Shown: in pieces, positions 1,914 through 37,855 of the stretch | How positions within the stretch are numbered: position 1 is the stretch's first letter | Layout: each line of letters begins with the position of its first letter | NCBI GenBank assembly: GCA_964636235.1 | Contig: CAZWQV010000002.1 | Coordinates: 37,607 to 101,606 of the forward strand | DNA length: 64,000 nt | Direction: 5' to 3' | From: an uncultured Thermoplasmatales archaeon | GTDB lineage: Archaea > Thermoplasmatota > E2 > DHVEG-1 | Translations under genes and position numbers: made by a program | The notes under the pieces: generated by a model | Told to the model about the DNA's origin: nothing | Database searches by the model: none | The model's input: only the letters and a program-made list of their open reading frames with translations

Positions 1914-1918
1914 CCCGT

Positions 1919-2440: not shown

Positions 2441-2506
2441 AATTTATCGGTTAAAAGAAAATATTATATACTTATTCATAGGTATCTTCGATTAATTAGT
2501 CTATAG

Positions 2507-2722: not shown

Positions 2723-2727
2723 TTATT

Positions 2728-3141
2728 TTAAAATGAACTTGTTGTTATAACAAGTTCGCCATGTTTAATTCCTTTTAATGATTTTATCGAATCTGAAAGT
2801 TGTTGAATATTTTTTATTTTTCCCTCTAAAACAAGTACTTCAAGGCAATTATCATGATCAATATGGACGTGCGTCGTTGTGAGAATTTCATTCGTATGAT
2901 CATGCTGGATTTGTAATAATTTATTTGTTAAATTTCCGGTATGATGATCATAAACCATTGTAAGTGTACCAATTGCATTTTTGTTTATATCTTTTTGTTT
3001 TTCAACAATTAGATTTTTACGAATAAGATCCCTAATTGCTTCACTCCGATTTGCATATCCTTCTTTTTTAATTAATGCATCAAATTTTTTAAGCAGTTCT
3101 GGTTCAACACTTACCCCAAATCGAGTAATTCTATCCGCCAT
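2728..3141 (-). CDS. nikR: nickel-responsive transcriptional regulator NikR
   Basis: N-terminal ribbon-helix-helix (RFGVSVEPELLKKFDALIKKEGYANRSEAIRDLIR) followed by a C-terminal ACT-like domain with H/C-rich metal-site residues (HHTGN, HVHIDHDNC). Confidence 0.8.
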   Translation of the reverse strand: MADRITRFGVSVEPELLKKFDALIKKEGYANRSEAIRDLIRKNLIVEKQKDINKNAIGTLTMVYDHHTGNLTNKLLQIQHDHTNEILTTTHVHIDHDNCLEVLVLEGKIKNIQQLSDSIKSLKGIKHGELVITTSSF

Positions 3142-3142
3142 A

Positions 3143-3248
3143 GTAACACGATATCAATGTAAAGATAGCACGAATATAAATTTTTTGTTACCAAAAGAAT
3201 TAAAAATAAAAAAACTATCTGGTGTTACTAAAATAAAATTAATGTTAC
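3143..3248. promoter_or_regulatory. Divergent nikR / ABC-transporter promoter with four copies of the hexamer TGTTAC (one inverted); candidate NikR operator
   Basis: GTAACAC at 3143-3149 is the reverse complement of GTGTTAC at 3222-3228. Further GTTAC copies sit at 3187-3191 and 3244-3248. About 0.1 copies would be expected by chance in a 120-bp AT-rich spacer. An SD aaggag lies at 3250-3255. Confidence 0.35.
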
Positions 3249-3260
3249 GAAGGAGTATTT

Positions 3261-4352: not shown

Positions 4353-4366
4353 GGATATTACCCATT

Positions 4367-5434: not shown

Positions 5435-6189
5435 TAATGCAACTAAAAAACGTATCGTTTAGTTATGATAAAAAATCAGTATTACATAATATTAATTTTA
5501 ATCTTAATGAAGGTGAGATTCTCGCGATAGTTGGTCCAAATGGTTCTGGCAAAAGCACTCTGTTAAAATGCATCGATCAGATTTTAAAACCACAAAAAGG
5601 AGTCATATTATTAGATCATCAAGATATCATGAAATTAAAACCTGAAGAAATAGCAAAAAAAATTGGTTACGTTCCCCAAAATAATGGGAGAAGCTTTCCT
5701 ACAACGGTATTTGATTCAATATTGATGGGAAGAAAACCGTATATTAAATGGGCTCCAACAAACAATGATTTGAAAAAAGTTACAAATGTGATTGAAAAGT
5801 TAAGAATACAGCATCTTGTTTTACGTGATATCAACGAATTAAGTGGTGGACAAAAACAAAAGGTGATTATTGGTAGGGCTCTGGCTCAGGAGCCAAAGAT
5901 ACTTTTATTAGATGAACCGACATCAAATTTAGATTTAAAACATCAATTAGAGGTTTTAAATTTAATAAAAGAACAAACAAAAGATAACGTATCAGCTGTT
6001 ATTGCAATACATGATTTGAATTTAGCATTACGATTTTGTGATAAAATTGTAATGTTACATAAAGGAAGGGTTTTTGCAGCAGGTGATTTAAATGTTCTTA
6101 CTGCTGAAAATATCGAAAAGGTTTACGATGTCAAGGTAAAAATAATTATGGAATCAGATAGGTTTTATGTTATTCCTGAAGAAAACTGA
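5428..6189 (+). CDS. ABC transporter ATP-binding protein (FecE/BtuD-like)
   Basis: Walker A GPNGSGKST, ABC signature LSGGQKQ, Walker B LLLDEPTS. Overlaps the permease gene by 7 nt, indicating an operon. Confidence 0.9.
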   Translation: MVIMQLKNVSFSYDKKSVLHNINFNLNEGEILAIVGPNGSGKSTLLKCIDQILKPQKGVILLDHQDIMKLKPEEIAKKIGYVPQNNGRSFPTTVFDSILMGRKPYIKWAPTNNDLKKVTNVIEKLRIQHLVLRDINELSGGQKQKVIIGRALAQEPKILLLDEPTSNLDLKHQLEVLNLIKEQTKDNVSAVIAIHDLNLALRFCDKIVMLHKGRVFAAGDLNVLTAENIEKVYDVKVKIIMESDRFYVIPEEN

Positions 6190-6200
6190 GGTAATGTAAA

Positions 6201-7310
6201 ATGGTTGAAATGAAACCGATTGGTGTAGTAAAAAATAAGTTTAATACTAAAACAGATCTCAATGATATTCGACAAAATGAAAGTATTATAGTTATTGATA
6301 AAGATTATGAAGAAGGACTTTTTCAGATTGATGGAATAGGTTACCTCCAAATAATTTTTAACTTTCATCTCAGTAAAAATCAACAATTGAAAGGACCAAT
6401 TTATAATGGAAAAGTGAAAGGTGTTTTCGCATCAAGAAGCCCTAAAAGACCAAATGGGATAGGAATTACAACTGTCCAGTTAATTGAAAGGAAAGGAAGA
6501 AAATTACGAGTAAAAGGACTCGATGCTTTAAATGGAACTCCTGTTCTAGATATAAAACCATATACACCTTTTTTAGATGAAAACAAGCAAATAGAATTCA
6601 TAGAAAATAATAAAAAATTGAATCCCCGATCAGATATACATAAATGGATTCTAAGAGAAAATTACCAACACTTATTATTGAATGCAGGTGAATTGCATGG
6701 GCATTATTGTCCTGGATTAAGTTTAGGGGTTCTTGCAGGTTCATATGCATTAAAAACAAAGAATTTTTTTTCTGATGGGATGGAAAAAGTAATTGCTATT
6801 GTAGAAACAAATAATTGCTTTAGCGATGGAATTCAATATGCTACGGGTTGTACTTTTGGAAATAATTCCTTAATATTTAGAGACTTTGGAAAAACAGCTG
6901 TTACGGTGTCAAAAAGAGATGGTAATGGATTAAGAATATCGGTAAAAAATAATGCAAATAACCTATGGCAAAAGAATCATCCAGAAGCAGAAGATCTCTT
7001 TCAAAAAGTGGTTACTGAACGAAAAGGTAATGATGAAGATACAAGGAATCTTATGAACCTATTTAAGCAAATCTCGTTTGAAATAATTGAATTTAATATT
7101 AATGATCTTTTTAATATAAAAAATGTAAAAATTAAAATCCCTGATTATGCTCCAATTCATGAGAATATATTATGTAGTAACTGTAAAGAGAATATTATGG
7201 GTTCAAGAGTAATTCATAAGGAATCAAAAAATCTATGCATCCCCTGTTCAAAATCAGAATTTTTTGAGTTGGATGGAAGTGGAATAAAAAAGCATTCTTC
7301 AATTGATTAA
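6201..7310 (+). CDS. Fusion protein: TsaA/YaeB (TrmO-like, UPF0066) N-domain + FmdE/FwdE-family domain + C-terminal CxxC...CxxC zinc ribbon
   Basis: The N-terminal 140 aa carry the TsaA signature (SRSPKRPNGIGITTVQLIERKG..L.V.GLDALNGTPVLDIKPY). The middle carries the FmdE signature HGHYCPGLSLG. The C-terminus has CSNC...CIPC. Confidence 0.65.
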   Translation: MVEMKPIGVVKNKFNTKTDLNDIRQNESIIVIDKDYEEGLFQIDGIGYLQIIFNFHLSKNQQLKGPIYNGKVKGVFASRSPKRPNGIGITTVQLIERKGRKLRVKGLDALNGTPVLDIKPYTPFLDENKQIEFIENNKKLNPRSDIHKWILRENYQHLLLNAGELHGHYCPGLSLGVLAGSYALKTKNFFSDGMEKVIAIVETNNCFSDGIQYATGCTFGNNSLIFRDFGKTAVTVSKRDGNGLRISVKNNANNLWQKNHPEAEDLFQKVVTERKGNDEDTRNLMNLFKQISFEIIEFNINDLFNIKNVKIKIPDYAPIHENILCSNCKENIMGSRVIHKESKNLCIPCSKSEFFELDGSGIKKHSSID

Positions 7311-7325
7311 CTATGATAATTAATA

Positions 7326-8048
7326 TTACCATTCAGCTAACTCGCCAATAATAATCCTCAATAATGGCGGGATAGAGCCTTCGGTTTTACCACAACCATA
7401 ACCAATACGCTCAATATGCATAGGTGGCATAGATTGAAATCGATCAGCAATAGTTGATATAACTGCAGCACCAGTTGGTGTTACTAATTCTTGCATTCTA
7501 TCTGTTTGATAGACTGGTACATTTTTTAATAGTTCAATGGTTGCGGGGGCTGGAATAGGAATGACGCCATGAGAACACTTGATAAATCCTGTTCCAAGAG
7601 GAAGTGGAGAACAATAGATGTGGTCAATACCAAGTTTTTTAATACCGATTACTGAGCCAACAATATCAATAATAGAATCAATTGCTCCGACTTCATGAAA
7701 ATGTACTTGTTCATAATCGATATTATGTATTTTTCCTTCTACCTTTGCTAGTTTTAAAAAAATTTTTTGACTTAGCTTTTTAATTTCCTCATCAAGACCA
7801 CTTTCTTGTATCATTTCTTTAATTTCTTGATAGCTTCGATGAGGCTGTTTTTCTATGACTGCAATCTTTACATCTTTTGCTTTGATATGATTTTTTTCAA
7901 TATCATTTACTTCAATATTATATCCTGAAATAGCAAGCTTTTTGATTTCATTTTTAAAATAAGTTACATCAAGACCTAGATCAAAAAGAGCACCAAGGAT
8001 CATATCACCACATATGCCAGAAAAACAATCAAAAAATGCAACTGTCAA
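7326..8048 (-). CDS. larC: LarC family nickel-insertion protein, N-terminal (LarC1) domain only
   Basis: 240 aa matching the N-terminal half of lactate-racemase nickel-pincer maturation protein LarC (FDCFSGICGDMILGAL, HFHEVGAIDSI.DIVG, PAPAT.ELL). The C-terminal CTP-binding half is not present here. Confidence 0.75.
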   Translation of the reverse strand: MTVAFFDCFSGICGDMILGALFDLGLDVTYFKNEIKKLAISGYNIEVNDIEKNHIKAKDVKIAVIEKQPHRSYQEIKEMIQESGLDEEIKKLSQKIFLKLAKVEGKIHNIDYEQVHFHEVGAIDSIIDIVGSVIGIKKLGIDHIYCSPLPLGTGFIKCSHGVIPIPAPATIELLKNVPVYQTDRMQELVTPTGAAVISTIADRFQSMPPMHIERIGYGCGKTEGSIPPLLRIIIGELAEW

Positions 8049-8054
8049 ATTTTA

Positions 8055-8828
8055 TCACCTGTTTATAATACTTGCAAAATATCCAGCACCAAAACCATTA
8101 TCAATATTTACTACAACCACACCTTCAGCACAACTATTAAGCATGGTAAGAAGTGGTGCAATACCTTTAAAACTTGCGCCGTATCCGATGCTTGTTGGAA
8201 CAGCGATTACAGGCGTTGATGTAAGACCACCGACCAAACTTGCAAGTGCTCCTTCCATACCTGCAATGACAATGATGACATTTGCATCAAATATTTTCTC
8301 TTTTATATCAAATAATCGATGAACACCTGCCACTCCGACATCATATGATTTTTCAACACAATTTCCCATGATTTCTGCTGTTACTGTTGCTTCTTCAGCA
8401 ACAGGGATATCTGATGTTCCAGCGGTAATAATGAGGATTTTACCTGGTTTTTTCTTTTTCTTTTTGTTTTCAATTACTATTGTTTTTGCCAGTTCATTAT
8501 ACTGGGCATATGGAAATTTCTTTACAACTTTTTCAAAAATAGTTTTATTTGCTTTTGTTGCAAGAATATTTTGATCTGGATCAAATGATTCAATGATTTT
8601 AATGATCTGATCTATTGTTTTTCCTTTACAAAAAATGGTTTCAGGAAATCCTTTCCGAAGTGCTCTATGGGTGTCAATTTTTACAAAATCTAAATCTTTA
8701 TATGGAAGCGTTTTTATTTTCGATAAAACCTTTTCTAAACTGATTTTCCCTTCTTTGAATTCCTGTAGTATCTTTTCCATTTTATAAAACCTCATCAAGG
8801 CTTCCAGATCGATATCCTTCGATATCAA
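8055..8828 (-). CDS. larB: LarB (PurE-like nickel-pincer nucleotide carboxylase/hydrolase)
   Basis: AIR-carboxylase-like fold motifs (IITAGTSD.PVAEEA, GVAGVHRL, VIAGMEGALAS.VGGL, GYGAS). Lies between larC and larE on the same strand. Confidence 0.75.
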   Translation of the reverse strand: MISKDIDLEALMRFYKMEKILQEFKEGKISLEKVLSKIKTLPYKDLDFVKIDTHRALRKGFPETIFCKGKTIDQIIKIIESFDPDQNILATKANKTIFEKVVKKFPYAQYNELAKTIVIENKKKKKKPGKILIITAGTSDIPVAEEATVTAEIMGNCVEKSYDVGVAGVHRLFDIKEKIFDANVIIVIAGMEGALASLVGGLTSTPVIAVPTSIGYGASFKGIAPLLTMLNSCAEGVVVVNIDNGFGAGYFASIINR

Positions 8829-9585
8829 TGGTAATATATTTGAATCCTAATTTTTTGAATGACTTAATTATATTATCAGCTGATGATAGAATTTTTTTCA
8901 TATCATCTTTTTTCACTTCTATTCGAGCTATTTCATGATGATATCTTACTCTAGATTGCTTTATTCCCAATGAATACAATACATTTTCTGCCTTTTCAAT
9001 TTGATTTAGGATATCTTCTGATATTCTAGTATTGTATGGTATTCTTGTTGCTAAACAAGGATTTGCAGGTTTGTCCCATGTTGATAAATGAAACTGTTTT
9101 GAAAGAGATCTGATGTCCTGCTTTGTTAAATTTGCTTGAACCAATGGACTTAATATCCCTAATTCTTTTAAAGCTTTTAAACCCGGGCGATACTGGTCTA
9201 AATCATCCAAGTTGCTACCCTCCAAAACTGATGAAATATTATGGGATTTGACAAAGTCTATTATTGTTGAGAACATGTATTTTTTACAATGATAACATCT
9301 ATCTGAAGGGTTTTCATAAAATCTTTTCATTTTTGTCATATCGATTTTTAATAGATGATGTGGAATTGAAAAAGAATTAGCAATTAATTTTGCTTCATTT
9401 ATTTCTTTCTTGGAATGAGCAGATGTTTGAAGAGTAACGGCAATGCAATTATTGCCAAGGACCTTCGATGTAATCTTTAATAGAAATGTACTGTCTACAC
9501 CTCCTGAAAAGGCAACTACTGCTGTTTTAAGTTTTTTAATGTTGTTTTCCAATATATCAATTTTATCTTGTAACTCTTTGTCCAC
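8782..9585 (-). CDS. larE: LarE (ATP-dependent sulfur transferase, PP-loop ATPase)
   Basis: PP-loop motif VAFSGGVDSTFLL and the conserved sacrificial-cysteine motif ANPCLATRIPY. Confidence 0.8.
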   Translation of the reverse strand: MDKELQDKIDILENNIKKLKTAVVAFSGGVDSTFLLKITSKVLGNNCIAVTLQTSAHSKKEINEAKLIANSFSIPHHLLKIDMTKMKRFYENPSDRCYHCKKYMFSTIIDFVKSHNISSVLEGSNLDDLDQYRPGLKALKELGILSPLVQANLTKQDIRSLSKQFHLSTWDKPANPCLATRIPYNTRISEDILNQIEKAENVLYSLGIKQSRVRYHHEIARIEVKKDDMKKILSSADNIIKSFKKLGFKYITIDIEGYRSGSLDEVL

Positions 9586-9632
9586 ACTAATTAAAAAATG
9601 ATTTATTATATATAAATTTGCTATTGACCTAG

Positions 9633-10496
9633 TTATTGTTTAATTTGTGATTCTACGTATTCTGCGCCAGAAGAAGTTAACTCTAAAGTATCATCGGATA
9701 CATATTTGATCATTTCCATGTTTGACAGTTTTTTTATCATTTGGATGAGTTCTTCTTTTGACACTTTTAATATACGGATTGCAGTATCAGCATCCATATC
9801 CTGCTTATGCATCAATTCGAGAAGATTATATTCTTTCTCGAAAATTTTTGTTTTTTTCTGAAGAGATTCCGGGTCATCAGATATTTCACCTGATAAAGTT
9901 TCAACATAATTTTGAATGATGCTATCTAAATTTAATCGATCTAATACATTTCCTTTATCATCGTATAGGGTACAAAATTTACTACCTTCCTCATGTTGCC
10001 ATGAGGAAACTTTTTTCCAGTTATAACCTAATTTATTTTCCCCAGGGCTGCCATCTTTTTTCTTTTTCTTTTTTAATCTTCGTTCAAAAACATGATGCTG
10101 TTCAAGCTGTATCTGATCCAGGTCAATACCATTATTTTCTATGTCCTGTGTTAATTGTTTACCAAATTTTTCTTTCAGTTCAGTGATAAAATAGAGTCCT
10201 GCTTCCTCATTAAGTTCATCATAAACCATTCTAATAAGTGATTCAATACAGCGAACAATGCGTTGTTTATCGATCTTATTTATGATATCTGAATGAATTA
10301 GGATTATTTTTTCTTTATCATCTGTTTGATGGTTTGTAAACGTGACATCCTTTAAGAACTCATATTTAGTTGAAAGGCTGAGCAAACAAGCTTTTATAGT
10401 ATCATCTGCGAATCTCTCGGATGTTCTTCTTCCAGCTACTTTATAAACAGATTGAATTGCTGTTTTCATCAGTTCTGAATTCTTTTTATTAACCAT
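9633..10496 (-). CDS. Uncharacterised two-domain protein: N-terminal unknown domain + C-terminal winged-HTH (paralog of 29839..30663)
   Basis: Shares AGRRTS..FA, GLYF..E.KE..GK, ENGIDL, LD.LNLD..I, EYELL and a C-terminal wHTH-like segment with the protein at 29839..30663. Confidence 0.4.
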   Translation of the reverse strand: MVNKKNSELMKTAIQSVYKVAGRRTSERFADDTIKACLLSLSTKYEFLKDVTFTNHQTDDKEKIILIHSDIINKIDKQRIVRCIESLIRMVYDELNEEAGLYFITELKEKFGKQLTQDIENNGIDLDQIQLEQHHVFERRLKKKKKKDGSPGENKLGYNWKKVSSWQHEEGSKFCTLYDDKGNVLDRLNLDSIIQNYVETLSGEISDDPESLQKKTKIFEKEYNLLELMHKQDMDADTAIRILKVSKEELIQMIKKLSNMEMIKYVSDDTLELTSSGAEYVESQIKQ

Positions 10497-10960
10497 CTTC
10501 CTTCACAGACGCTTCAAGGTTAATTGGCTCTTATAATATAATATCGTAGGTTTTTTTAAAAGTTTACTAATTTTTATGAATTATATCGTATTAATAAATA
10601 TTTTGTAAATGATGTATTTTATTAAATTACTAATAAAATTCCTAATAGATATCATTATATATATTATAACGAATAATTTTATAGTTATTTATTTTTATTT
10701 AACAAATATGGGCCATGTAGTTAGAGAGAGATACTCTATAACATCAAACCGACTCTTTGTTAAACCGTTGAATTGATCATCTCATTATATAAAATTTTTA
10801 TATATGGGTGATATCTGTTGAAATATATATGCTATATAGAATAGCCTTATAAATCCATAGTCATTAAAACCTCACATGAGGATTTGCTTTTAAAAGAGGG
10901 GAATACCATTTTTATTTCATCGCATCCTCTTTCTCCTCTCCAGTTCTAATTAAATAAATG

Positions 10961-11428
10961 TTAAAGCTTGTGTTTTTCAAAATAATCTTGATGGTATCCT
11001 TCAGCAGGATAAAAGGTAGATGCGGGCATTATTTCTGTTACAATTTTTTTATCGTAATTGCCTGATTTTTCAAGAAGCTTTAATGATTTTTCAGCGATTT
11101 GTTTTTGTTCATTTGTAGAATAATAAATAACAGAACGATATTGATAACCAATATCAACTCCTTGTCCATCAGATTGAGTTGGATTGTGTATCTTCCAAAA
11201 GATATCAAGCAGATCTGCAAAAGAAATTATAGTAGGATCATAGAGAATTTGTACTACTTCTGCATGACCAGTTTTACTAGAACAAACATCCTTATAGGTA
11301 GGATTTTTCATGTTTCCACCCATATAACCGACTGTTGTTTCGATAACACCAGGTTCATGTTTAAATGCTTCCTCAACCCCCCAAAAACATCCTGCGCCAA
11401 AAGTAATTTTTTCAACCATATGCTTCAC
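10961..11428 (-). CDS. msrA: peptide methionine sulfoxide reductase MsrA
   Basis: Active-site motif FGAGCFWGVE and family-typical length of 155 aa. Confidence 0.9.
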   Translation of the reverse strand: MKHMVEKITFGAGCFWGVEEAFKHEPGVIETTVGYMGGNMKNPTYKDVCSSKTGHAEVVQILYDPTIISFADLLDIFWKIHNPTQSDGQGVDIGYQYRSVIYYSTNEQKQIAEKSLKLLEKSGNYDKKIVTEIMPASTFYPAEGYHQDYFEKHKL

Positions 11429-11435
11429 TTTATAA

Positions 11436-12140
11436 TTAACATTGTTTTTTTACTAATCTTTTTTGTATCTTCTCACTTTTTAGTTCAGTTAATGCATTAT
11501 TTGCAATCCATTGAGCACTTTTTGTATTGTTTCTTTTTATTGACTCAGCGATCTGAATTGCTTTTAAATTTAATTCAAGATTTCTTTTACCAATCTGTCT
11601 CAGAGCCCAATTAACTGCTTTTTTAACAAAATTTCTGTCATCATTACATTCACGAATGATACAATCAAAAAAAATATCGAATTGGATATTTTCCATTTGC
11701 TTATTATGAACCGATAGACAAGCCATTAATACAAATCCTGCCCTTTTTACAAACGTATCTTTACAAGCACTCCATTCAAGAGCCTTAGAGATTGCATAAG
11801 GAGTTTTATCAAATAAGTTGCTACAACATTGATCACAGATATCCCAAGAATCAAAATCTTTAACCCATGCTTCCATTTGATCACTAGTAACACAATTTGC
11901 TTCATCAATCAAACAGGCAAGAAGTCGTGCTTCATGTATTTTGCTTTGCCATAATTGTTGAGCTAAGGAGTGGCTCTTTCCAATTTCTTTTGCATATGAT
12001 CGTAATTGATAAATAGAAATCCCAATCGCATCTGAAGCATTGATATTAACTCTTTTCATATCATGAATTCTTTTTTCTGAAGCTATTGAATGCAAATGAG
12101 TTAAAATGTCCTGTACTTTCATCAAGAAAGAGATATCCAT
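11436..12140 (-). CDS. DNA alkylation repair enzyme family protein (AlkD/AlkC-like HEAT-like repeats)
   Basis: 234 aa all-helical protein. Its repeat architecture and motifs (WA.KDF..W.ICD) resemble the DNA_alkylation family. Confidence 0.55.
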   Translation of the reverse strand: MDISFLMKVQDILTHLHSIASEKRIHDMKRVNINASDAIGISIYQLRSYAKEIGKSHSLAQQLWQSKIHEARLLACLIDEANCVTSDQMEAWVKDFDSWDICDQCCSNLFDKTPYAISKALEWSACKDTFVKRAGFVLMACLSVHNKQMENIQFDIFFDCIIRECNDDRNFVKKAVNWALRQIGKRNLELNLKAIQIAESIKRNNTKSAQWIANNALTELKSEKIQKRLVKKQC

Positions 12141-12260
12141 ACTTATCTATATCAAACATACTGTTGATAGGGAAAAACCAAGGTTCATTAAAAGAAAATT
12201 TTTTTAAACTGGTTAATACATTATTCAGATGAAAAAAAATACAATAAAAAGTGATTAACA

Positions 12261-12437
12261 GTGAACGAAGATGATAAGAAAGCATTCCTTGAAGATTTCA
12301 AAAATAGAGACATCAATCAAAAATTAGACATGTGGTTTTATGCACTTGATCAAGGTGGAATTTGGGAAGAATTACTTGCTGAAATGTCTAATATTGCAAC
12401 TGTCGAACAGATGAAACAGATGAAGAATAAAGCCTAA
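12261..12437 (+). CDS. Small hypothetical protein (58 aa, GTG start), paralog of downstream ORF
   Basis: Not in the ORF track (<60 aa). Supported by clear paralogy with 12460..12663 (KKAF.EDFK....LDMW.YAL.Q..W...L..M..IA). Confidence 0.35.
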   Translation: MNEDDKKAFLEDFKNRDINQKLDMWFYALDQGGIWEELLAEMSNIATVEQMKQMKNKA

Positions 12438-12459
12438 TGAAAGACGCGAAGGGATTATC

Positions 12460-12663
12460 ATGGATGATGAAGGTAAAAAAGAATTTATGAAAGAATTCAA
12501 AGAATCAGATGGATCGACAAGATTAGATATGTGGGATTATGCCTTACAACAACAAGTTCTATGGGATGATATCCTTACACAGATGCAAAAAATCGCTCAT
12601 GAACAAGGAATCGATAAAAAATTAGAAAAATTAATTGATGAGGAAATGAAAAAACAAGAATAA
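12460..12663 (+). CDS. Small hypothetical protein (67 aa), tandem paralog
   Basis: Shares the FKE.D...LDMWDYAL.QQ.W..IL..M..IA motif with the upstream 58-aa ORF. Predicted helical and acidic. Confidence 0.4.
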   Translation: MDDEGKKEFMKEFKESDGSTRLDMWDYALQQQVLWDDILTQMQKIAHEQGIDKKLEKLIDEEMKKQE

Positions 12664-12737
12664 TAAACGCTTTCTTGGTCAAGTCTTCAAACATTTTTAA
12701 ATTCATTATATTATCTGGAAATATAGGTATTAATATT

Positions 12738-13868
12738 CTATTTTCTATAAAGCAATCGTTCATAATACTGTGAAGTTCCAGTGTTGAGTATTTCAGTTAT
12801 TATTTTTTCTGTAACCGGTCCAACACCTTTTATATTCTGCAATTCGAATTTCATTGAAGATAATGGTTGGGTGAGTTGGGAAATCTGATATGATGCGTAA
12901 CCATAAGGGGATTTTTTTCCATTTATTTTATGTAAATAATCAAGTTGATCCAAAATAACAGAAACAGTATCATTTTCGCATAGTATATTGTTAAATAAGG
13001 ATGCAGGAATTCGAATTGGGATGTGATTATTTTTCATTAACGTAATAAATGTTTCATGAATGGAATGAGTATACTCCTTTGTTGCCTGTCCCCAGGTATC
13101 ATTTTTATAGATTATCTCATAATCAGTTAAAAGATGAGGATAATGTTCTTTTAGAGTTTGATAAAAGAATTCTTTTTGTTTTCCTTTTTTTAGAGTCATT
13201 CCCCCAAAAATTACATAATCAATATCCATATCGATAAAATCTTGTATGGTTTTCTTCATACTCGTAACAGTATCGGTGATAAATGGAATCACAGGCATTA
13301 AAAATACTCCTACGGTGAATCCTTTCTTTTTTAATTTTTTCATTGTTTTTAATTTTTCACTTGGAGAAGAAGTTCCCGGTTCAAAAATTGAACAAATATC
13401 ATCATCTGTTGAACAGAAACTAAAATTTAATAATAAATTATTTTTTTCATGTACTTCAGAAAATAAATCTATATCCCGTTCAATCAGAGTTGATTTGGTA
13501 AGAATTGAAATTGGTAAATGATAATGATTAAGCAATTCAAGAGTCTTTCTGGTTAATTGATATGTTTTTTCGATTGGTTGATAACTATCTCCAACGCCTC
13601 CACCTAATAAAATATAGCATTTTTTAAATGATTTTTTCTTTTTTAACAACCGAAGTTCTTTATTAAGTACTTCAATAGCATTGATCTTAACTTCTACATC
13701 TTCTCCAAAACATCCATTAACTTGATATTTCTCAGATCTTCCATCACAATAAACACAATTATGTAAACAACCTCTATACAGATTCATGCCATAACAGGAT
13801 ATAAACCACGAATCCATTCGTTTATAAGTACGAAGAATTGATTTAGCCTTTATTTCCTTAATAGTCAT
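12738..13868 (-). CDS. Radical SAM protein, SplB/DNA-repair-photolyase-like (COG1533) with C-terminal helix-hairpin-helix
   Basis: CxxxCxxC motif CLHNCVYC near the N-terminus. The C-terminus carries an HhH-like IKGVGPVTEKII. Confidence 0.55.
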   Translation of the reverse strand: MTIKEIKAKSILRTYKRMDSWFISCYGMNLYRGCLHNCVYCDGRSEKYQVNGCFGEDVEVKINAIEVLNKELRLLKKKKSFKKCYILLGGGVGDSYQPIEKTYQLTRKTLELLNHYHLPISILTKSTLIERDIDLFSEVHEKNNLLLNFSFCSTDDDICSIFEPGTSSPSEKLKTMKKLKKKGFTVGVFLMPVIPFITDTVTSMKKTIQDFIDMDIDYVIFGGMTLKKGKQKEFFYQTLKEHYPHLLTDYEIIYKNDTWGQATKEYTHSIHETFITLMKNNHIPIRIPASLFNNILCENDTVSVILDQLDYLHKINGKKSPYGYASYQISQLTQPLSSMKFELQNIKGVGPVTEKIITEILNTGTSQYYERLLYRK

Positions 13869-14068
13869 ACAGAAAGTATGAATTAGAAATATTGCTTAAA
13901 CATTTTCTTCCATGATTGGTTTAAATTTTAATGAGAAGTGAACTAATACAAATAAGTTAGTTATTTTATCATATCTATAGAAAGTAAACAGTATTTATTT
14001 AAATGATTATAGTAATTTGCTTTAATTGTTTATTATCAATTTATTACTTTTCAATATTGGAGGAGAAT

Positions 14069-27747: not shown

Positions 27748-29799
27748 TTGATGATTAACATGTCTGAAGAATGTATTATGGAAAAATCTGATGTATTGGA
27801 TACTTCTCAGCATGATTCATGTGAACCAAGACATGATACTTCGCATAATCTTAATCAAATCATCAATTCCACAGATCAAATTCCTGCTATTATTGTTATC
27901 ACAGATGCCACTGGTATCATTCAATATGTAAATAGGAAATTTACAGAAATAACTGGATATTCTAATATTGAAGTTATTGGAAAGACACCAGCAATTCTCA
28001 AGTCTGGATATCATCCAGATGAATTCTATCGACATATGTGGAACACTATTTCATCTAAAAAAATGTGGGCTGGTGAATTCTACAATAAAAAGAAAACTGG
28101 TGAACTTTATTGGGAACATGCAACTATTTCACCCGCATTTGATGCGCAACGGAATATTACTAATTTTATCGCTGTAAAACAAGAAATAACGAATAGAAAA
28201 GAAATGGAATACAATTTAAAAATAAAGGAAAATGCATTATTGTCTTCCATAAATGCAATTGTTCTAACTGACTTAAATGGAAATATCACCTATGTAAACC
28301 CATCCTTTTTAGGAATGTGGAATTTTGATTCTGAGCAAAGAATATTACAAAAACCTGTTTTCAGTCTCTGGAAAAAAGGAGGTCAATACGTAAATATCAT
28401 TGATCAAATCCTTAGGGATGGAGGCTGGTTTGGAGAAGTAATCGCTAAAGGAAATGATGGTCGATTGTTTCCGGTGCAAATGTCTGCCAGTATGGTCAAA
28501 GATGAATTTGATAAATTACTTTGTATCATGGCATCTTTTGTTGATGTAACCAAACAGAAAAGACTTGAGAAGAAATACAAGCGATTTAAAACCATTTCAG
28601 ATGAAGCTGATTACGGTGCTATTATCCATGATATGGATGGAACTATATTGTATGTTAACAAATCCTTTGCTTTTATACACGGCTATTACCCCCAAGATAT
28701 TATTGGTAAAAATCTTTCCATATTTTATGCTGAAGATAAGGCACAAGATTATACAACTATGATTAATGAATTAAAAACAGTTGGTAATGTAGTAGGAAAA
28801 GAATTATATCATATAACAAAAAATGGGGATACTATTCCTTTATTAATGACCTCCACAGTGATTAAAGAAACTGATTACCAAAACCCGTATGTTGCAGGAA
28901 CTGTCATTGATATCACAGAAAGAAAAGAATCTGAAAAAAAGATTTTGGAACATACAGAGGTCCTCCGTGAAATGAACAATGAACTACAGGTCGCAAGAGA
29001 ACAATTATCAACTTTAAATCAAAATCTAGAAATAGAAGTAGAACAGAGAACGCAGAAGATTAGAAAATTGGTTGAACAGAAAGATGGATTTATCACACAA
29101 TTAAGTCATGATTTAAAAACACCGTTAACGCCCATAATGGCATTATTGCCAATTCTTAAAGATTCACTTCGAACAGAGAAAGAAAAAGAGATTTTAGATG
29201 TTATTATAAAAAATACATATTTTATGAAGGACCTTGTGGAAAAAACCATCGATTTGGCCAAATTCAACTCAGATAGAATTGATATACCTATTGAAACAAT
29301 TGAGTTAAAATCAATCATGGATAAAATCTTGACAAATAACAAAGTTATGTTCGAAGAAAAAAATATAAAGATTGAAAATGGCATAGCTGATGGTTTATAT
29401 ATAAAGGGAAATGAGTTAAGACTTTATGAAGTTTTTAATAATATATTAACAAACTCAGTTAAATACATAGGTGAAAATGAAAAAAGAATCACTATCCAAG
29501 CAACAAAAGAACAAGACATGGTACAGATTTCATTCAGTGATTCAGGCATTGGTATGACACAAGAGCAAATAGATCGTATTTTTGATGAGTTTTATAAGGC
29601 AGATTCATCAAGACATGATCATAATTCAACAGGACTTGGGCTTTCAATTACCAAGAAAATTGTTGAAAAGCATGGCGGTGTCATCTGGGCAGAAAGTCAA
29701 GGACTTGGGGGCGGAAGTACTTTTTTTATTCGTCTTAAAGCGGCTGATAATAAAGATGAATTAAAGAAGAGTGCAGATGAATCAGAAATTTATGGATAA
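27748..29799 (+). CDS. multi-PAS sensor histidine kinase
   Basis: Three or four PAS/PAC repeats, a coiled-coil linker, HisKA H-box LSHDLKTPLTPI, and HATPase_c N/G boxes (NNILTNSVKY, DSGIGM, GLGLSITKKIVEKHGG). Confidence 0.85.
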   Translation: MMINMSEECIMEKSDVLDTSQHDSCEPRHDTSHNLNQIINSTDQIPAIIVITDATGIIQYVNRKFTEITGYSNIEVIGKTPAILKSGYHPDEFYRHMWNTISSKKMWAGEFYNKKKTGELYWEHATISPAFDAQRNITNFIAVKQEITNRKEMEYNLKIKENALLSSINAIVLTDLNGNITYVNPSFLGMWNFDSEQRILQKPVFSLWKKGGQYVNIIDQILRDGGWFGEVIAKGNDGRLFPVQMSASMVKDEFDKLLCIMASFVDVTKQKRLEKKYKRFKTISDEADYGAIIHDMDGTILYVNKSFAFIHGYYPQDIIGKNLSIFYAEDKAQDYTTMINELKTVGNVVGKELYHITKNGDTIPLLMTSTVIKETDYQNPYVAGTVIDITERKESEKKILEHTEVLREMNNELQVAREQLSTLNQNLEIEVEQRTQKIRKLVEQKDGFITQLSHDLKTPLTPIMALLPILKDSLRTEKEKEILDVIIKNTYFMKDLVEKTIDLAKFNSDRIDIPIETIELKSIMDKILTNNKVMFEEKNIKIENGIADGLYIKGNELRLYEVFNNILTNSVKYIGENEKRITIQATKEQDMVQISFSDSGIGMTQEQIDRIFDEFYKADSSRHDHNSTGLGLSITKKIVEKHGGVIWAESQGLGGGSTFFIRLKAADNKDELKKSADESEIYG

Positions 29800-29838
29800 T
29801 GAGCAAGATATCATTTAAAGAATATAGGGGAAAACATA

Positions 29839-30663
29839 ATGGATATAAAAAATGCAAGTATAGTACATAATTCACTACAGGCATTATGCAGTATTGCTGG
29901 AAGAAGAACGACAAGTAATTTTGCAGTTAAGGTTATGAATACCATAATGACCACGTTGCGTGATCGATATGATTTTTTAAAATATGTTGAAATTCATGAT
30001 GAGCATAACATTCAAGTAGCTTCTCAAATAAATGAGATTTCCTCATCTGAGATATGTAAAGCAATTGAAACAGCCATTCGAATTGTCTATATGGACCTGC
30101 AAGATAATGGTGGCCTTTATTTTATGAAAGAATTTAAAGAAATAATTGGGAAAGAAACCATTCATGCATTGGAAGAAAATGGGATTGATTTAAACATCAT
30201 TGAAATGGAACAGAAACATTCGTTTAACCATCGAAACAAGGTAAATAAAATTGCGGGAGATGCAAGTATTTTAGGATATATATGGTCGGATGTGTCAAAT
30301 TGGAAATATGATGATCATAATAAAGTCTGCATCCTCTATAATAAAGATGATAAAATACTGGATAAACTTAATTTAGATGTTATTATAAAAGAGCACATTG
30401 ACAAATTAACCGGTTCTGATGATATTGATATATCTCAAGACCTTCAAACCGAAAGATATCAAAAAGAATATGAGCTTTTGACTATGCTGCAATCAAAGGA
30501 CTTGGATATTGATACAGCATTAACCCTCCTTCAGATATCTGATGAGGAATTGGAACATATTGTGAAAAGACTGATGGGTTTAGGGTTTTTAGAATATGTG
30601 GATGTTGATGTAGTAAAAATTAGTGAAAAAGGATTGCAATATATCTCGAATCCTGTGAAATAA
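29839..30663 (+). CDS. Uncharacterised two-domain protein: unknown N-domain + C-terminal wHTH (paralog of 9633..10496)
   Basis: Paralog of 9633..10496 with shared motifs. Starts 40 nt after the histidine-kinase stop on the same strand. Confidence 0.45.
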   Translation: MDIKNASIVHNSLQALCSIAGRRTTSNFAVKVMNTIMTTLRDRYDFLKYVEIHDEHNIQVASQINEISSSEICKAIETAIRIVYMDLQDNGGLYFMKEFKEIIGKETIHALEENGIDLNIIEMEQKHSFNHRNKVNKIAGDASILGYIWSDVSNWKYDDHNKVCILYNKDDKILDKLNLDVIIKEHIDKLTGSDDIDISQDLQTERYQKEYELLTMLQSKDLDIDTALTLLQISDEELEHIVKRLMGLGFLEYVDVDVVKISEKGLQYISNPVK

Positions 30664-34505: not shown

Positions 34506-35174
34506 ATGAAAAAGATGACCATTCAAATATCTCTTAATCCCTTTTTTTATAATTTAATAAAAAGTATAGCACCAATTGATATTATTGAAAATACAGAAGT
34601 ATTAGATATTTTAAAAATTGATTTTGAGAAAATATATAAAATCATTCTTGTGAAAATGATCATAAAACCAGGTCATACTGTTAAGGAACTGGAAGCTTCA
34701 AAAAGTGTTAAAATTCTTTCTACATTAGAAGAAGATGAACGATCAATTACATGCATAATGCAAGGTCGTCCACCAATTCATATTTTTTCAAAGCTAGGTG
34801 AAATCACCAAACATTTCGATGTTGATGTTATTTGGGATACGCCTTCAAGAATGCAAGGTCGGCATGTTGTTTTTAGTGCTATCGGATCGGAAAAAGCGCT
34901 CAATAAAATTGCTGTCTCTTGTAAATTAATTGGAAATGTTGAAAAATTAAGTTTTACTAATACTTTTTTACAGGAAATTGATTTGTTGAACTGTTTAACC
35001 GATAAACAAAAACAGATACTTGTTACCGCAAAACAAAGAGGATATTATGAGTATCCAAGGAAAATATCAACGGATATTCTTTCCAAACATGTCGGATTAA
35101 GTAAAGCAACAACGGTGGAACATTTAAGAAAAGCTGAAAATAGACTTATGTCACAATTGCTGGTTGGATATTAA
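34506..35174 (+). CDS. HTH_10 (Bat/bacterio-opsin-activator-type) DNA-binding regulator
   Basis: C-terminal motif LTDKQKQILVTAKQRGYYEYPRKIS...LSKHVGLSKATTVEHLRKAENRLM is the archaeal HTH_10 signature. Confidence 0.55.
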   Translation: MKKMTIQISLNPFFYNLIKSIAPIDIIENTEVLDILKIDFEKIYKIILVKMIIKPGHTVKELEASKSVKILSTLEEDERSITCIMQGRPPIHIFSKLGEITKHFDVDVIWDTPSRMQGRHVVFSAIGSEKALNKIAVSCKLIGNVEKLSFTNTFLQEIDLLNCLTDKQKQILVTAKQRGYYEYPRKISTDILSKHVGLSKATTVEHLRKAENRLMSQLLVGY

Positions 35175-35307
35175 AAATTAAACAATAAATACTTAATTGC
35201 CTTTTTTAATTAAAACATTTGTAATAATAATATTTAATTATTTAATTAACTATAGAAAAATATATATTCTAGTAACTATTATTAAATTACTATTGGGAGG
35301 TAGACCA

Positions 35308-35958
35308 ATGATAATGAAGGGCAAAATATTATTTTTTGTACTGCTGGTGCTGCTAAGTACTGCAATATTGCCGTTTCCTGTCATTGCTGGTGATGAGCAG
35401 AATCCTGAAATAGTAGATACAGTGGAAGATGCAAGATCGTATTTAGATATTGAAAAAGCATGGTTTTTTGAAGAAGAATCAACTCCAAATTATCTCTATA
35501 CAACCATAAAGTTACGAAATAGTAATGTGATGATGCCAAAGCAACATCTTACTGTTCATTGGAAGATGGATGATGAAATCTATTGGACCATTTGCTCAGT
35601 AGGTTATGAGGCTGGGCAATGGATACATTTTAATTTTGGCATTGGAATTGATTACTGGTATGATAGGGCAGAAGTATTTGACATTGAGGAAGAATTTGAT
35701 ACGGAATCAGGAACAGTAATATGTAAAATACCAAAATCATTATTAAATGATCCTGAACCAGGTACAATTCTAAAAGATACTTCATAAGAAGGTTTTGAAC
35801 GATTTGGCTTTTTCGGTCGATTGGGTTTCAGTCCAAAAATGAGAAGCATTCTTTTTTATAAACTTGGACTTCCAGAGTTACAAGTACAGGATTTTGCACC
35901 AAATATAATCCCTGGTGAAGAAAGAGAATATGGAAAGGATTATATTATACAATACTAG
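35308..35958 (+). pseudogene. Secreted protein, tandem-family member 1, interrupted by in-frame TAA at 35785-35787
   Basis: Signal peptide and AGDE..PEIVD motif. After the TAA the same frame continues FERFGFFGRLGF...GKDYIIQY*, matching the conserved C-terminus of members 2-4. Confidence 0.5.
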
Positions 35959-35971
35959 GGGGAATAATGAA

Positions 35972-36583
35972 ATGAAAAAATGTATATGTATTTTTGTTAT
36001 GGCGCTGTTTCTCACAACGATTTTGCCAATAACAGTAACTGCGGGTGATGAATCTGATCCAGAGATTGTTGATGGTGAAGACACGGCAGTATTTGATTAC
36101 TTGGATATTATATCTGCTTGGTTCTATGAAAAAGAAAATGAACCAGATTATCTTTATACTGCACTTAAATTAAAGGAAATCAATACGCTTAAATTTAAAC
36201 AACACCTGACTGTTCATTGGGAGCATAATGGAGTTGAATGCGCATCTTCGCTGGTGATAGGATATGGTGAACCATGGTATGCATTTATAGCAGGTTATGG
36301 TCATGGATTTTGGTTTCAAGAGCATTATGTTGAAATTGAGGGCAACTTTGATACTGAAACAGGTATTATTACCTGTAAAATCCCTAAAAGTATCATAAAT
36401 AATCCACAAATAGGTGATGTATTAACAAAAACAAAAGCACTTACCTTCCAACGGTTTGGATTTATTGGAAGATTAGGATTCGATCGTTTTTGGTTTTCAG
36501 GTTTAGTATCACTGATCACTGGAAAGGTTCCGTGGGATGGAGCACCATATGAGTATGGGAGAGATTATATTATTCAATATTAA
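35972..36583 (+). CDS. Secreted protein, tandem-family member 2 (unknown family)
   Basis: Signal peptide and AGDESDPEIVD. Conserved Y.DI...F.E....P.YLY, HLTVHW, GxITCKIPK, FQRFGFIGRLGF and C-terminal DYIIQY. Start chosen at ATG 35972. Confidence 0.5.
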   Translation: MKKCICIFVMALFLTTILPITVTAGDESDPEIVDGEDTAVFDYLDIISAWFYEKENEPDYLYTALKLKEINTLKFKQHLTVHWEHNGVECASSLVIGYGEPWYAFIAGYGHGFWFQEHYVEIEGNFDTETGIITCKIPKSIINNPQIGDVLTKTKALTFQRFGFIGRLGFDRFWFSGLVSLITGKVPWDGAPYEYGRDYIIQY

Positions 36584-36595
36584 AAGAGGGAAAAA

Positions 36596-37213
36596 ATGAA
36601 AAGAAAATTAATTGGAATATATATTGTTTTTATATTTATAAGCACAAGTATGTCAACCATGTTTGTGTTAGCTGATGAGCCAGAACCGCAAATAACTGAT
36701 CCAACTAGAGATGCATTTGGCTATATCGATATTGTGGATATTTTTTTTGAAAAACAAGAAACCCCTGAATTTCTTTGTGTATCAATGAAAATAAGTGAAC
36801 CATCTTTTTCAACATTTCAGCAAACATTTGCTGTTTTCTGGAAATATGATAAAGTTCAATATTCTTGTGGCCTTCATCTAGGATTCAGACCAAAGGATTG
36901 GGAAGCATATAATGCAGGTAAATATGAACGTGGAAAACGAAATCAGGATCTCCAAGATATCGAAGGCGACTATGATTTTGAAGATGGTGTCATTACATGG
37001 ACTATTCCAAAAGAACTTATTGGAAGTCCATCAAAAGGTGATGTATTATATGATACCTGGTCAAATGCGTTTAGACGGCTCGGTTTTATTGGAAGAATTG
37101 GTTTTACTCGCATTATCCTTGATAAAATTATCTTAAATGTATTTGATAATAACATGTGGGATTATGCGCCAGCAGAAGGAAGCTATGGTGATAATTATAC
37201 AATTCAATATTAA
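36596..37213 (+). CDS. Secreted protein, tandem-family member 3
   Basis: Signal peptide. Shares family motifs and C-terminal AFRRLGFIGRIGFTR ... DNYTIQY. Highly similar at the nucleotide level to member 4. Confidence 0.5.
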   Translation: MKRKLIGIYIVFIFISTSMSTMFVLADEPEPQITDPTRDAFGYIDIVDIFFEKQETPEFLCVSMKISEPSFSTFQQTFAVFWKYDKVQYSCGLHLGFRPKDWEAYNAGKYERGKRNQDLQDIEGDYDFEDGVITWTIPKELIGSPSKGDVLYDTWSNAFRRLGFIGRIGFTRIILDKIILNVFDNNMWDYAPAEGSYGDNYTIQY

Positions 37214-37246
37214 AAATAGTATATATGGAAAAATTGAGGTGAATAA

Positions 37247-37855
37247 ATGAGAAGAAAATTAATTGGAATATATCTGGTCTTCATATTTATAAGTTCAAGT
37301 ATGTCAACCATGTTTGTGCAAGCTGATGATCAAGAGCCACAGATCACAGATCAAACCGGTGACGCCTTTGGCTATATCGATATTGTGGATATTGAGTTTT
37401 TTGAAAAAGAGGAAGCTCCAGAATATCTTTATGTTTCAATGCAGATTAATGATCCTTCATTTACCACGTTTCAGCAAACCTTTGCTGTTTTTTGGAAACT
37501 CAATGGCACAGAATATTCATGCAGTTTACATAGGGGATTTAGTTTGAAATATTGGGATAGATACACTGCGGGAATAAGCAGAACTCGAAATCATAATGAT
37601 ATAAATGGAACGTACAATATGCAAACCGGTGTTATAACATGGAAGGTTCCAAAAGAATTCATTGGAGATCCTGAAAAAGGGGATGTTTTATATGACACCT
37701 GGTCAAACGCATTTAGAAGATTAGGGTTCATTGGAAGAATAGGTTTTACCCGCTATATCCTTGATGCAGTTATTTTGAAAGTATTTAATAATAACATGTG
37801 GGATTATGCTCCAGGAGAAGATAGTTACGGAGATAACTATATAATTAAATATTAA
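37247..37855 (+). CDS. Secreted protein, tandem-family member 4
   Basis: Near-duplicate of member 3. Followed by a T-rich terminator-like run (tcctgttttttttattctttttc around 37893). Confidence 0.5.
   Translation: MRRKLIGIYLVFIFISSSMSTMFVQADDQEPQITDQTGDAFGYIDIVDIEFFEKEEAPEYLYVSMQINDPSFTTFQQTFAVFWKLNGTEYSCSLHRGFSLKYWDRYTAGISRTRNHNDINGTYNMQTGVITWKVPKEFIGDPEKGDVLYDTWSNAFRRLGFIGRIGFTRYILDAVILKVFNNNMWDYAPGEDSYGDNYIIKY

Follow-up and report, generated by a model that had tools for sequence, protein, structure and literature searches.

A lineage-specific protein family linked to histidine kinases in uncultured Thermoplasmatota is a candidate partner in archaeal two-component signaling

Results

The 64,000-nucleotide stretch of DNA analyzed here (the window) carries a gene for a sensor histidine kinase that is directly followed by a second gene, designated X (Table 1). 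An earlier, sequence-only reading of this DNA had described the kinase as a PAS protein with complete HisKA and HATPase domains, and Pfam placed both in the protein (HisKA, PF00512, 1.3e-11; HATPase_c, PF02518, 3.6e-27), together with PAS matches (PAS_9, 1.4e-47). The H-box, SHDLKTP, is present, and the predicted phospho-acceptor is His454 (positions 29107..29109). The start of the kinase is ambiguous by 1 to 4 codons (TTG at 27748, then ATG at 27751 and 27760). Pfam found no REC domain in the kinase itself. The absence of a REC regulator near the kinase, also noted earlier, holds for the whole window: a REC HMM built in this analysis matched none of its ORFs of at least 60 aa.

X lies just downstream of the kinase on the same strand, as had been read from the sequence, and a GGGG Shine-Dalgarno-like motif stands 9 nt ahead of its ATG. 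The order of the two genes is kept in orthologs (53 to 79% identity) with otherwise different flanking genes, and the gap in orthologous pairs ranges from an overlap up to 113 nt. The kinase and X are likely cotranscribed as a predicted two-gene operon.

The window also encodes a paralog of X, designated Y, which aligns with X over its full length (36% identity, E 4e-60). This paralog had been recognized by shared motifs, and four of these (AGRRT, GLYF, NGIDL, and LD.LNLD) fall in invariant columns of the 61-member family alignment; the fifth, EYELL, is not common to both proteins (KEYELL in X, KEYNLL in Y). Y has its own orthologous clade, whose genes are not kinase-linked and have no conserved neighbor. 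The position of Y beside a lar/nickel cluster, to which attention had been drawn, is not conserved either, and a functional link to that cluster was rejected, as other Y-type loci share no neighbor from the window except by synteny in close relatives. Neither X nor Y matched any Pfam or NCBIfam family. We refer to their family as F and to its parts as the N module, the beta subdomain, and the acidic winged helix.

Table 1. Positions of the kinase, X, and Y features in the window
Feature	Position	Strand	Basis
Cytoplasmic sensor histidine kinase, 683 aa	27748..29799	+	Listed ORF, Pfam
Kinase sensor region, three PAS domains, aa ~37-394	27856..28929	+	Pfam PAS, PAS_9, PAS_4 (three stretches each)
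Kinase HisKA (DHp), aa 445-507	29080..29268	+	Pfam
Kinase HATPase_c catalytic domain, C-terminal to HisKA, aa 554-665	29407..29742	+	Pfam
Kinase-X spacer, 39 nt, with GGGG Shine-Dalgarno-like motif	29800..29838	+	Read from sequence
X, F family member, 274 aa, next gene after kinase	29839..30663	+	ORF listing
X N module, aa 1-138	29839..30252	+	AF2 (pLDDT 83), alignments, profile search
X beta subdomain, three strands and helix, aa 147-191	30277..30411	+	AF2, alignment
X acidic linker, predicted disordered, aa 192-204	30412..30450	+	pLDDT <50
X winged-helix domain, C-terminal, aa 205-270, net charge -7	30451..30648	+	AF2, Foldseek
Y, paralog of X, 287 aa, same architecture, no adjacent kinase	9633..10496	-	Sequence comparison

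The N-terminal part of X, first taken for an unrecognized domain of ~180 aa, did go unrecognized in all searches but is not a single domain. In the AF2 model it is a composite: a helical domain of ~130 aa with one beta hairpin (the N module) is joined by a short basic linker to a beta subdomain of three strands and ~45 aa. The hallmark motifs of the N module are GRRT(S/T), Y.FLKY, GL(Y/F)F..E.K, and G(V/I)(D/N)L. A basic stretch of 20 to 30 aa (RSRERKK...) precedes the beta subdomain, in which Y147, W155, C164, and D175 (motif LD.LNLD) are invariant; R22, R23, T24, D117, and D175 of X are invariant across the 61-member alignment.

The N module is not REC-like. The PF00072 receiver profile did not match X or Y even at E = 1, comparison of the N-terminal part with 13 operon REC proteins gave an hhalign probability of 2.2%, and the AF2 model, made up of helices, a single hairpin, and a three-strand meander, lacks the (beta-alpha)5 fold with its D-D-D-T/S-K site. 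Traits of HPt domains are likewise missing, with no invariant His among the 61 members and no Pfam Hpt or Foldseek match. A REC-like or HPt-like N-domain was thus rejected on the basis of Pfam, alignment, AF2 fold, and hhalign, and none of the comparisons (Pfam, NCBIfam, hhalign, AF2, and Foldseek) assigned it to a known enzyme. Foldseek gave no PDB match to the N module. Judged by its predicted fold, the N module is a new domain, unrelated in sequence and modeled structure to any Pfam family.

The N module is also a separable domain. Proteins of ~400 aa that consist of three tandem N modules (N3 proteins) are encoded in HK-REC-N3(-REC) operons in all three long contigs examined. Most N3 repeats carry Asn at the position of D117, and repeat 2 has a degenerate RRT motif. 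One apparent multirepeat protein (P0368; 1700 aa, 25 matched stretches) was discarded as a spurious match to an ORF spanning a tandem DNA repeat.

The linker that follows the beta subdomain had been called acidic, and its charge is -3 to -8 across the family. The C-terminal domain has the topology H-H-H-beta-beta in the AF2 model and gave MarR-type Foldseek matches (probability ~1.0, E 0.07 to 0.3). No DNA-binding HTH family profile matched it significantly, and TcaR in the PDB scored E 0.011; DUF2250 and HTH_45 appeared only below threshold, with weak DUF2250 matches in 13 of 61 members, all under the family cutoffs. The domain is acidic in nearly all members (net charge -3 to -10 per 66 aa), and the wing (LLQYTSYNVIELTE) contains no K or R. 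Within the same genome, a MarR region carries +2 (best 66-aa window, +11) and an HTH_10 region +6, compared with -7 for X; in the long paralogs of L078-80, the winged helix is positively charged. Short F paralogs and the N3 proteins have no winged helix and retain two-component linkage. The fold half of the earlier description as a C-terminal wHTH regulator is thus borne out by AF2 and Foldseek; the regulator half is weakened by the acidic domain and nonbasic wing, and DNA binding by this domain appears doubtful.

The linkage of F to two-component genes was assessed in 72 distinct related loci (87 F genes), all from Thermoplasmatota MAGs; all named family matches likewise belong to Thermoplasmatota. 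The complete chromosomes CP070712, CP070724, and CP070798 carry the family as well, and metagenomes contain several hundred kinase-F and REC-F pairs. A HisKA/HATPase kinase lies within 800 bp of 70 of the 87 F genes and in 61 of the 72 distinct loci. Conversely, all 70 strong kinase matches in 1.15 Mb of locus DNA adjoin F, and only two weak matches do not. Distance matrices of the kinase core and F are strongly correlated (Mantel r 0.88, 0/2000 permutations), and the two trees resolve the same paralogous clades, different ones of which co-occur in one genome; nine assemblies each contain two family or N-module loci. The kinase and F have co-diverged, and with the linkage in other loci this strengthens the initial idea of a kinase-partner family. 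The sensor parts of the F-linked kinases differ (3 to ~8 PAS domains, HAMP transmembrane, or HisKA_7TM) while F stays constant, which links F to the transmitter rather than the input side.

Across clades, the only conserved neighbors of F are the kinase and stand-alone REC proteins, the latter in 27 loci. At least six clade-specific arrangements were found, with otherwise unrelated flanking genes: HK>F, REC>HK>F, F><[Zn-ribbon<HK], HK>F>REC, REC<HK<REC<>F, and F-REC-F-CheW/REC-GHKL. In several operons, a pair of REC proteins surrounds the kinase or F. The operon REC proteins retain D12, D57, S/T87, and K109, and the kinase retains its H-box. At X-type and convergent-type loci, no REC was found within 8 to 10 kb. 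The receiver-less pairing proposed from the window is therefore not general, as intact stand-alone REC genes occur in REC-HK-F, HK-F-REC, and HK-REC-N3-REC operons of other clades. Because REC shares the operon in those clades, F may act after the HK->REC step as a third component instead of taking the place of REC.

Two other kinds of neighbor were considered and rejected. PAS-DUF835 proteins neighbor F in no more than two or three distinct contexts, and candidate regulated targets (GcvP, NosD/PKD, radical-SAM, and Zn-ribbon genes) are each confined to one clade.

Discussion

Archaea lack bacterial-type DNA-binding response regulators, their receivers are mostly stand-alone REC proteins, and many of their kinases are orphans (PMC5847659, PMC11784639). 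We consider it reasonably probable that F is a dedicated partner of the two-component transmitter side in uncultured Thermoplasmatota, an adaptor or effector that would dock on the kinase or on REC. Beyond the linkage and co-divergence, this reading is supported by its fit to published views that archaeal two-component outputs are mainly protein-protein contacts made by stand-alone REC and lineage-specific partner domains (PMC5847659) and that archaeal orphan kinases may signal through as yet unknown partners (PMC11784639). F is an undescribed, lineage-specific family in a system of a known type; no account of it turned up in literature searches, which does not prove that there is none.

For the locus in the window, we infer a mechanism in which a cytoplasmic cue would be sensed by the PAS domains and the kinase would autophosphorylate on the predicted His454. 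X would dock physically, through its N module, with either the DHp/CA core of the kinase or a CheY-like receiver to which the kinase has passed its phosphate, and the phosphorylation state would decide whether X is bound, released, or remodeled. The signal would be relayed by the beta and winged-helix part of X, for which protein contact seems more probable than classical DNA binding.

F could instead be a classical DNA-binding transcription factor, switched by the kinase directly or via a stand-alone REC protein, and so the missing DNA-binding half of a split response regulator. The MarR-type winged-helix fold (Foldseek ~1.0, E ~0.07; TcaR, E 0.011), the basic stretch before the beta subdomain, and the positive winged helix of the L078-80 long paralogs all point that way, as does the observation that archaea, which lack DNA-binding response regulators, often have HTH genes beside REC genes (PMC5847659). 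However, the net charge of the winged helix and a wing with no basic residue are difficult to reconcile with this role, particularly next to the positively charged MarR and HTH_10 regulators of the same genome. Two-component linkage also persists in N3 and short F paralogs that have no winged helix, and no target gene is conserved beside F across clades. We regard a classical DNA-binding role as rather unlikely.

The partner reading itself is not well distinguished from one in which F modulates the phosphorelay and is not its output, as a connector, scaffold, kinase inhibitor, or REC~P phosphatase or sink; the types with which we compared it are Sda/KipI, CheZ/Rap/Spo0E, and PmrD-type connectors. 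In such a scheme, more than one N module would allow binding to several transmitter proteins. The N3 proteins, which are three N modules alone flanked by REC genes, would suit this role, as would the operons in which a pair of REC proteins surrounds the kinase or F. An all-helical build is common among auxiliary phosphatases and inhibitors, and the N module is helical as well; an acidic winged helix, moreover, need not be an output. Against this, F has no catalytic-looking motif in common with CheZ, Spo0E, or Rap and no Pfam matches, and the added beta subdomain and winged helix suggest an effector function. Taken together, we think a purely modulatory role unlikely.

X might also be a non-REC phospho-acceptor, with the kinase phosphorylating a conserved site in the N module or beta subdomain (e.g., D117, D175, or T24 of GRRT). 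The X-type and convergent-type loci without nearby REC, the invariance of R22, R23, T24, D117, and D175, and the kinase-F co-divergence are compatible with direct transfer. Canonical intact REC proteins nevertheless share the operon in other clades. In N3 proteins, most repeats have Asn in place of D117, and RRT has degenerated in repeat 2. The fold, moreover, has no relation to REC or HPt, and no His is invariant; in addition, no HisKA kinase is known to phosphorylate a non-REC domain. This makes phosphotransfer to X quite improbable. If it did occur, the N module would be a new kind of receiver, with direct phosphorelay in REC-less two-gene modules of the X type and convergent type, and the triple-N proteins would be multisite phosphate acceptors or sinks.

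That the adjacency is inherited synteny only and that F has a function unrelated to signaling is very improbable and already disfavored: all loci do come from one phylum and Y-type genes are not kinase-linked, but the arrangements number at least six, with unrelated flanks and only kinase and REC as shared neighbors, and the sampled DNA contains few other kinases.

The reading of F as a dedicated transmitter-side partner bears on the output route of archaeal two-component systems. Here F provides a concrete candidate partner, and X, from its sequence and gene context, is a good candidate for a downstream partner: essentially every strong kinase match in the sampled Thermoplasmatota loci adjoins an F member. 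The module that defines F has no Pfam model and no detectable relative of solved structure; it would be a new signaling domain. Several hundred "hypothetical" proteins in a widespread lineage of sediment archaea could also be better annotated.

Comparison with known systems

The closest parallels are the HalOD1 and NitrOD1-5 domains (Galperin et al. 2018, PMC5847659), which, like F, are lineage restricted and mostly stand-alone, with several paralogs per genome. They also share with F an association with REC and kinase genes, a proposed protein-protein function, and absence from Pfam when first described (PMC5847659). HalOD1 and NitrOD1-5 were defined through REC fusions, whereas no REC fusion to the N module was found among 474 family proteins or in the loci, with coverage of the best 150 of 424 representative hits. 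The N module differs further in forming triple tandem repeats and in its combination with a beta subdomain and an acidic winged helix.

The Methanosarcinales have Msr-type regulators (wHTH plus DUF1724), encoded beside MsmS and RdmS, as well as FilR1. The pairing of MsmS and RdmS with Msr-type regulators was the precedent cited in the sequence-only reading; the Msr proteins are REC-less HTH proteins proposed as kinase partners. The distinction from Msr made in that reading stands, as X and Y do not match DUF1724 (PF08350), and the HTH is N-terminal in Msr but C-terminal in X. The precedent itself had to be revised, since the H-box is missing from MsmS and RdmS, which are no longer regarded as autokinases, and Msr involvement has been preliminarily excluded for the kinase MA4377 (PMC11784639). 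In contrast, the kinase in the window has a canonical H-box.

Like X, canonical response regulators directly follow a HisKA kinase in the operon and co-diverge with it. X differs from them in having no REC domain (Pfam; hhalign, 2%), in being helical rather than (beta-alpha)5, and in that related operons contain a separate intact REC. The winged helices of MarR and DUF2250 have the same fold as aa 205-270 of X, which is set apart by its strong acidity and a wing without basic residues.

Sda, KipI, PmrD, Rap, CheZ, and the archaeal CheY adaptor CheF have no REC domain; they bind either a kinase or a phosphorylated receiver, whose signal they modulate or relay. No sequence or fold similarity between these proteins and F was detected. 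By analogy, we think that F may act as such connector or adaptor proteins do; compared with what is generally known of connector families, F is larger, multidomain, and far more consistently operon-linked than most.

A two-gene unit of kinase and X

The sequence-only reading had described a histidine kinase followed by X, a winged-helix protein with a paralog, Y, elsewhere in the window. All three genes are present (see table), the single correction concerning the strand of Y (minus). The kinase has the H-box SH454DLKTP and no receiver domain (REC) at its C terminus. The kinase-X spacer is 39 nt long and contains a GGGG Shine-Dalgarno-like motif. Because the next gene, encoding a transglutaminase-like protein, converges on X, the kinase and X constitute a two-gene unit. 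Y aligns with X over the full length (36% identity; E = 4e-60), and neither protein matched a Pfam-A or NCBIfam model. A REC profile built here matched no ORF (≥60 aa) in the 64-kb window, which bears out the claim that no REC regulator lies nearby. With the three genes in place, no Pfam-A or NCBIfam family for X or Y, and no REC in the window, the original observation was confirmed.

Features of the window and of related loci (L, fetched family loci)
Feature	Position	Strand	Remark
Sensor kinase, cytoplasmic, 683 aa	27748..29799	+	Three PAS, HisKA (aa 445-507), HATPase_c (aa 554-665); ORF call, domain matches
X, 274 aa	29839..30663	+	Directly after kinase
Y, 287 aa	9633..10496	-	X paralog
larE	8782..9585	-	Directly downstream of Y
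larB	8055..8828	-	Downstream of Y
larC	7326..8048	-	Downstream of Y
CbiM/Q/O-type nickel/cobalt transporter ORFs	about 4367..7310	+	
NikR-like gene	2728..3141	-	
MarR gene	1919..2347	-	
MatE gene	465..1913	-	
Radical-SAM/helix-hairpin-helix gene	12738..13868	-	Spore-photoproduct-lyase-like; near Y
PAS-DUF835 protein, 754 aa	14003..16267	+	Three PAS, C-terminal DUF835 (inactive-KaiC-like); 3.5 kb from Y
HTH_10 regulator	34506..35174	+	Region 34506..37855
Four tandem ORFs	35197..35787, 35915..36583, 36596..37213, 37247..37855	+	N-terminal hydrophobic, signal-like segments
Zinc-ribbon protein (L041)	10894..11238	-	3' of kinase, convergent clade
Short F to GHKL cluster (L078)	9995..13926		Also in L079, L080
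Tandem F pair (L058)	9239..10882		
Tandem F pair (L065)	9239..10885		REC follows

The lar, transporter, NikR-like, MarR, and MatE genes form a compact island for the nickel-pincer cofactor and for nickel uptake (465..9585); the adjacency of Y to the lar cluster is incidental, as it is not conserved in other genomes. The PAS-DUF835 protein is a second cytoplasmic signalling protein of the window, and a similar one lies 1.2 kb 5' of the kinase gene, but only in L006-8 and L020. Homologs of the radical-SAM gene occur within a few kilobases of REC-kinase-F loci of another clade, and its proximity to Y may be a shared-synteny remnant. The four paralogous ORFs (∼200 aa each) after the HTH_10 gene share 28 to 70% identity, and none has a Pfam family.

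Architecture and distribution of the family

X and Y define a family, here called F. AF2 models of X, with an alignment of 61 members as input, reached a pLDDT of 78 for the full-length protein and 83 for residues 1 to 192. Models and alignment place a helical module of ∼130 aa with one beta hairpin (N module) in the N region; the invariant residues of the N module are R22-R23-T24 (GRRT), G92/L93/F95/E98 (GL(Y/F)F..E), and D117/L118 (G(V/I)DL). It is followed in the models by a short, poorly ordered basic stretch, a beta subdomain of three strands and a helix (aa 147 to 191; invariant Y147, W155, C164, and D175), an acidic disordered linker, and a winged helix (aa 205 to 270). The N-module fold is, as modeled, apparently new.

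Searches returned 106 (query X) and 145 (query Y) cluster representatives, all unannotated, and the named matches came from Thermoplasmatota or Thermoplasmatales MAGs only. A profile search of 1.84 billion representatives gave 424 matches at E ≤1e-3 (272 at E ≤1e-10), many of them ∼400-aa proteins of three tandem N modules and nothing else (N3); no Pfam family was found for the N-module and N3 proteins. Among 474 family proteins, one N module was counted in 286, two in 21, and three in 167. Aligned with X and Y, the repeats have motifs identical in kind; since tandem N-only proteins keep these motifs, the N module is an autonomous domain. When one genome per GTDB species was scanned, 67 loci were found, every one in Thermoplasmatota; they include SG8-52-3 and SM1-50, members of the Marine Benthic Group D/Thermoprofundales sediment archaea. 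F is absent from a 2025 Pfam copy and from NCBIfam release 20.0 (June 2026), and literature searches found no published description.

Two metagenomic proteins are unusual fusions. In P0255, the N module and part of the beta subdomain are linked to TPR repeats; in P0327, possibly a gene-call artefact, the beta subdomain and winged helix are attached to a TdeIII-type restriction endonuclease domain. A third, P0368 (1,700 aa; 25 matched stretches), was rejected as a spurious match to a translated tandem DNA repeat.

X had been proposed to act as a winged-HTH regulator. The winged-helix fold holds, but output through DNA binding is doubtful. F does contain a basic linker, and in the long paralogs of L078-80 the winged helix is basic; however, nearly all members have a winged-helix net charge between −3 and −10 (−7 in X and −6 in Y), with no basic residue in the wing, whereas the MarR-type and HTH_10 proteins of the same window are positive, and N3 proteins and short paralogs have no winged helix at all. 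F shares the winged-helix fold with DNA-binding members but has neither their family-level nor their electrostatic signature, and a role in protein contacts seems more likely.

F genes adjoin histidine kinase genes

ORFs were called in all fetched loci and scanned with HMMs for F, the HisKA-HATPase core, and REC. A kinase gene (HK) lay within 800 bp of 70 of 87 F genes (61 of 72 distinct loci). The fetched DNA, 1.15 Mb in all, contained 70 strong kinase matches, every one of them adjoining F; the only matches that did not adjoin F were two weak GHKL matches. The finding extends beyond the window and is sturdier than the window alone could reveal.

Gene arrangement depended on the clade in a neighbor-joining tree. 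The X clade is HK>F: the two genes overlap or are up to 113 nt apart, and no REC lies within 8 to 10 kb; flanking genes differ among X-clade orthologs (53 to 79% identity). The second clade has the order REC>HK(∼1045 aa)>F, and in the third, F is convergent with HK>double-Zn-ribbon. Smaller clades show HK(HAMP)>F>REC, REC<HK<REC<>F, or F(short)>REC>F>CheW-REC>GHKL. An adjoining kinase is missing only from the Y clade and from a clade of tandem F genes (F-F). In each of the three long contigs examined, the N3 gene belonged to an HK>REC>N3(>REC) operon; the kinases had very unlike sensor parts (HisKA_7TM-HAMP or multi-PAS). When all neighbors were clustered, only the kinase (61 loci) and stand-alone REC proteins (27 loci) were common across clades; the others reflect clade-specific synteny.

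The zinc-ribbon protein, at the equivalent position in 23 other loci, has two CxxC...CxxC ribbons in its full form (∼110 aa) and one in ∼60-aa forms, and may belong to the convergent module as an additional component. In the clusters of L078-80, found in genomes that also have X-type pairs, the short F lacks the beta subdomain, the CheW-REC protein is CheV-like, and the GHKL ATPase lacks HisKA. The tandem pairs, with no kinase adjoining, consist of a 231- to 232-aa member without a winged helix and then a full-length member.

The receiver-less pairing holds in the X clade but is not general: in several other clades, related operons encode intact REC proteins that retain D12, D57, S/T87, and K109. 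That F is phosphorylated directly, standing in for REC, is unlikely, because these REC proteins are intact and D117, the candidate acidic residue, is Asn in most N3 repeats.

Kinase cores and F diverged together

Kinase-core and F distance matrices were correlated (Mantel r = 0.88; 59 non-redundant pairs; reached by 0 of 2,000 permutations), which is support rather than proof, since shared ancestry inflates such correlations. The two trees contain the same paralogous clades. Because distinct clades co-occur within one genome (for example, CAYPUK, L020 and L078; JAGMDE, L028 and L068; CP070712, L041 and L058; DAOVGR, L040 and L065), the co-divergence goes back to duplication of kinase and F together as a module, not to species phylogeny alone.

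A proposed partner on the transmitter side

F is a new domain family of a single archaeal lineage, and its link to histidine kinases is nearly obligatory. Since sensor domains vary and F is constant, F is tied to the transmitter side (kinase core and/or receiver), and since the N module by itself retains the linkage, the tie runs through this module. In our reading, F would be an adaptor or effector, particular to its lineage, that docks on the kinase/REC pair, in line with the published picture of archaeal two-component systems: bacterial-type DNA-binding regulators are absent, stand-alone REC domains are abundant, and output proceeds via protein-protein contacts, with lineage-specific stand-alone partner domains known (PMC5847659), and there are orphan kinases whose partners are unknown (PMC11784639). 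The simplest version for the window, as comparative genomics suggests, would be a kinase-X complex whose state is set by phosphorylation of His454; a REC whose gene lies elsewhere may join it. The F system would then be a form of two-component signalling in which an accessory or output partner takes part, and F is better called a third transmitter-side partner than a receiver-less regulator. Its C-terminal part is likewise better described as an acidic winged helix than as a wHTH transcription factor.

The precedent invoked for X, pairing of MsmS/RdmS with Msr regulators, is weakened: both kinases lack an H-box and have had their autokinase status withdrawn, and Msr regulators were preliminarily ruled out for another kinase (PMC11784639). 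F lacks the defining features of REC, HPt, and Msr (DUF1724) proteins. By sequence, it belongs neither to the bacterial connector proteins nor to the stand-alone "output" domains of haloarchaea and thaumarchaea; in its proposed mode of action, it most resembles the latter or, alternatively, the former.
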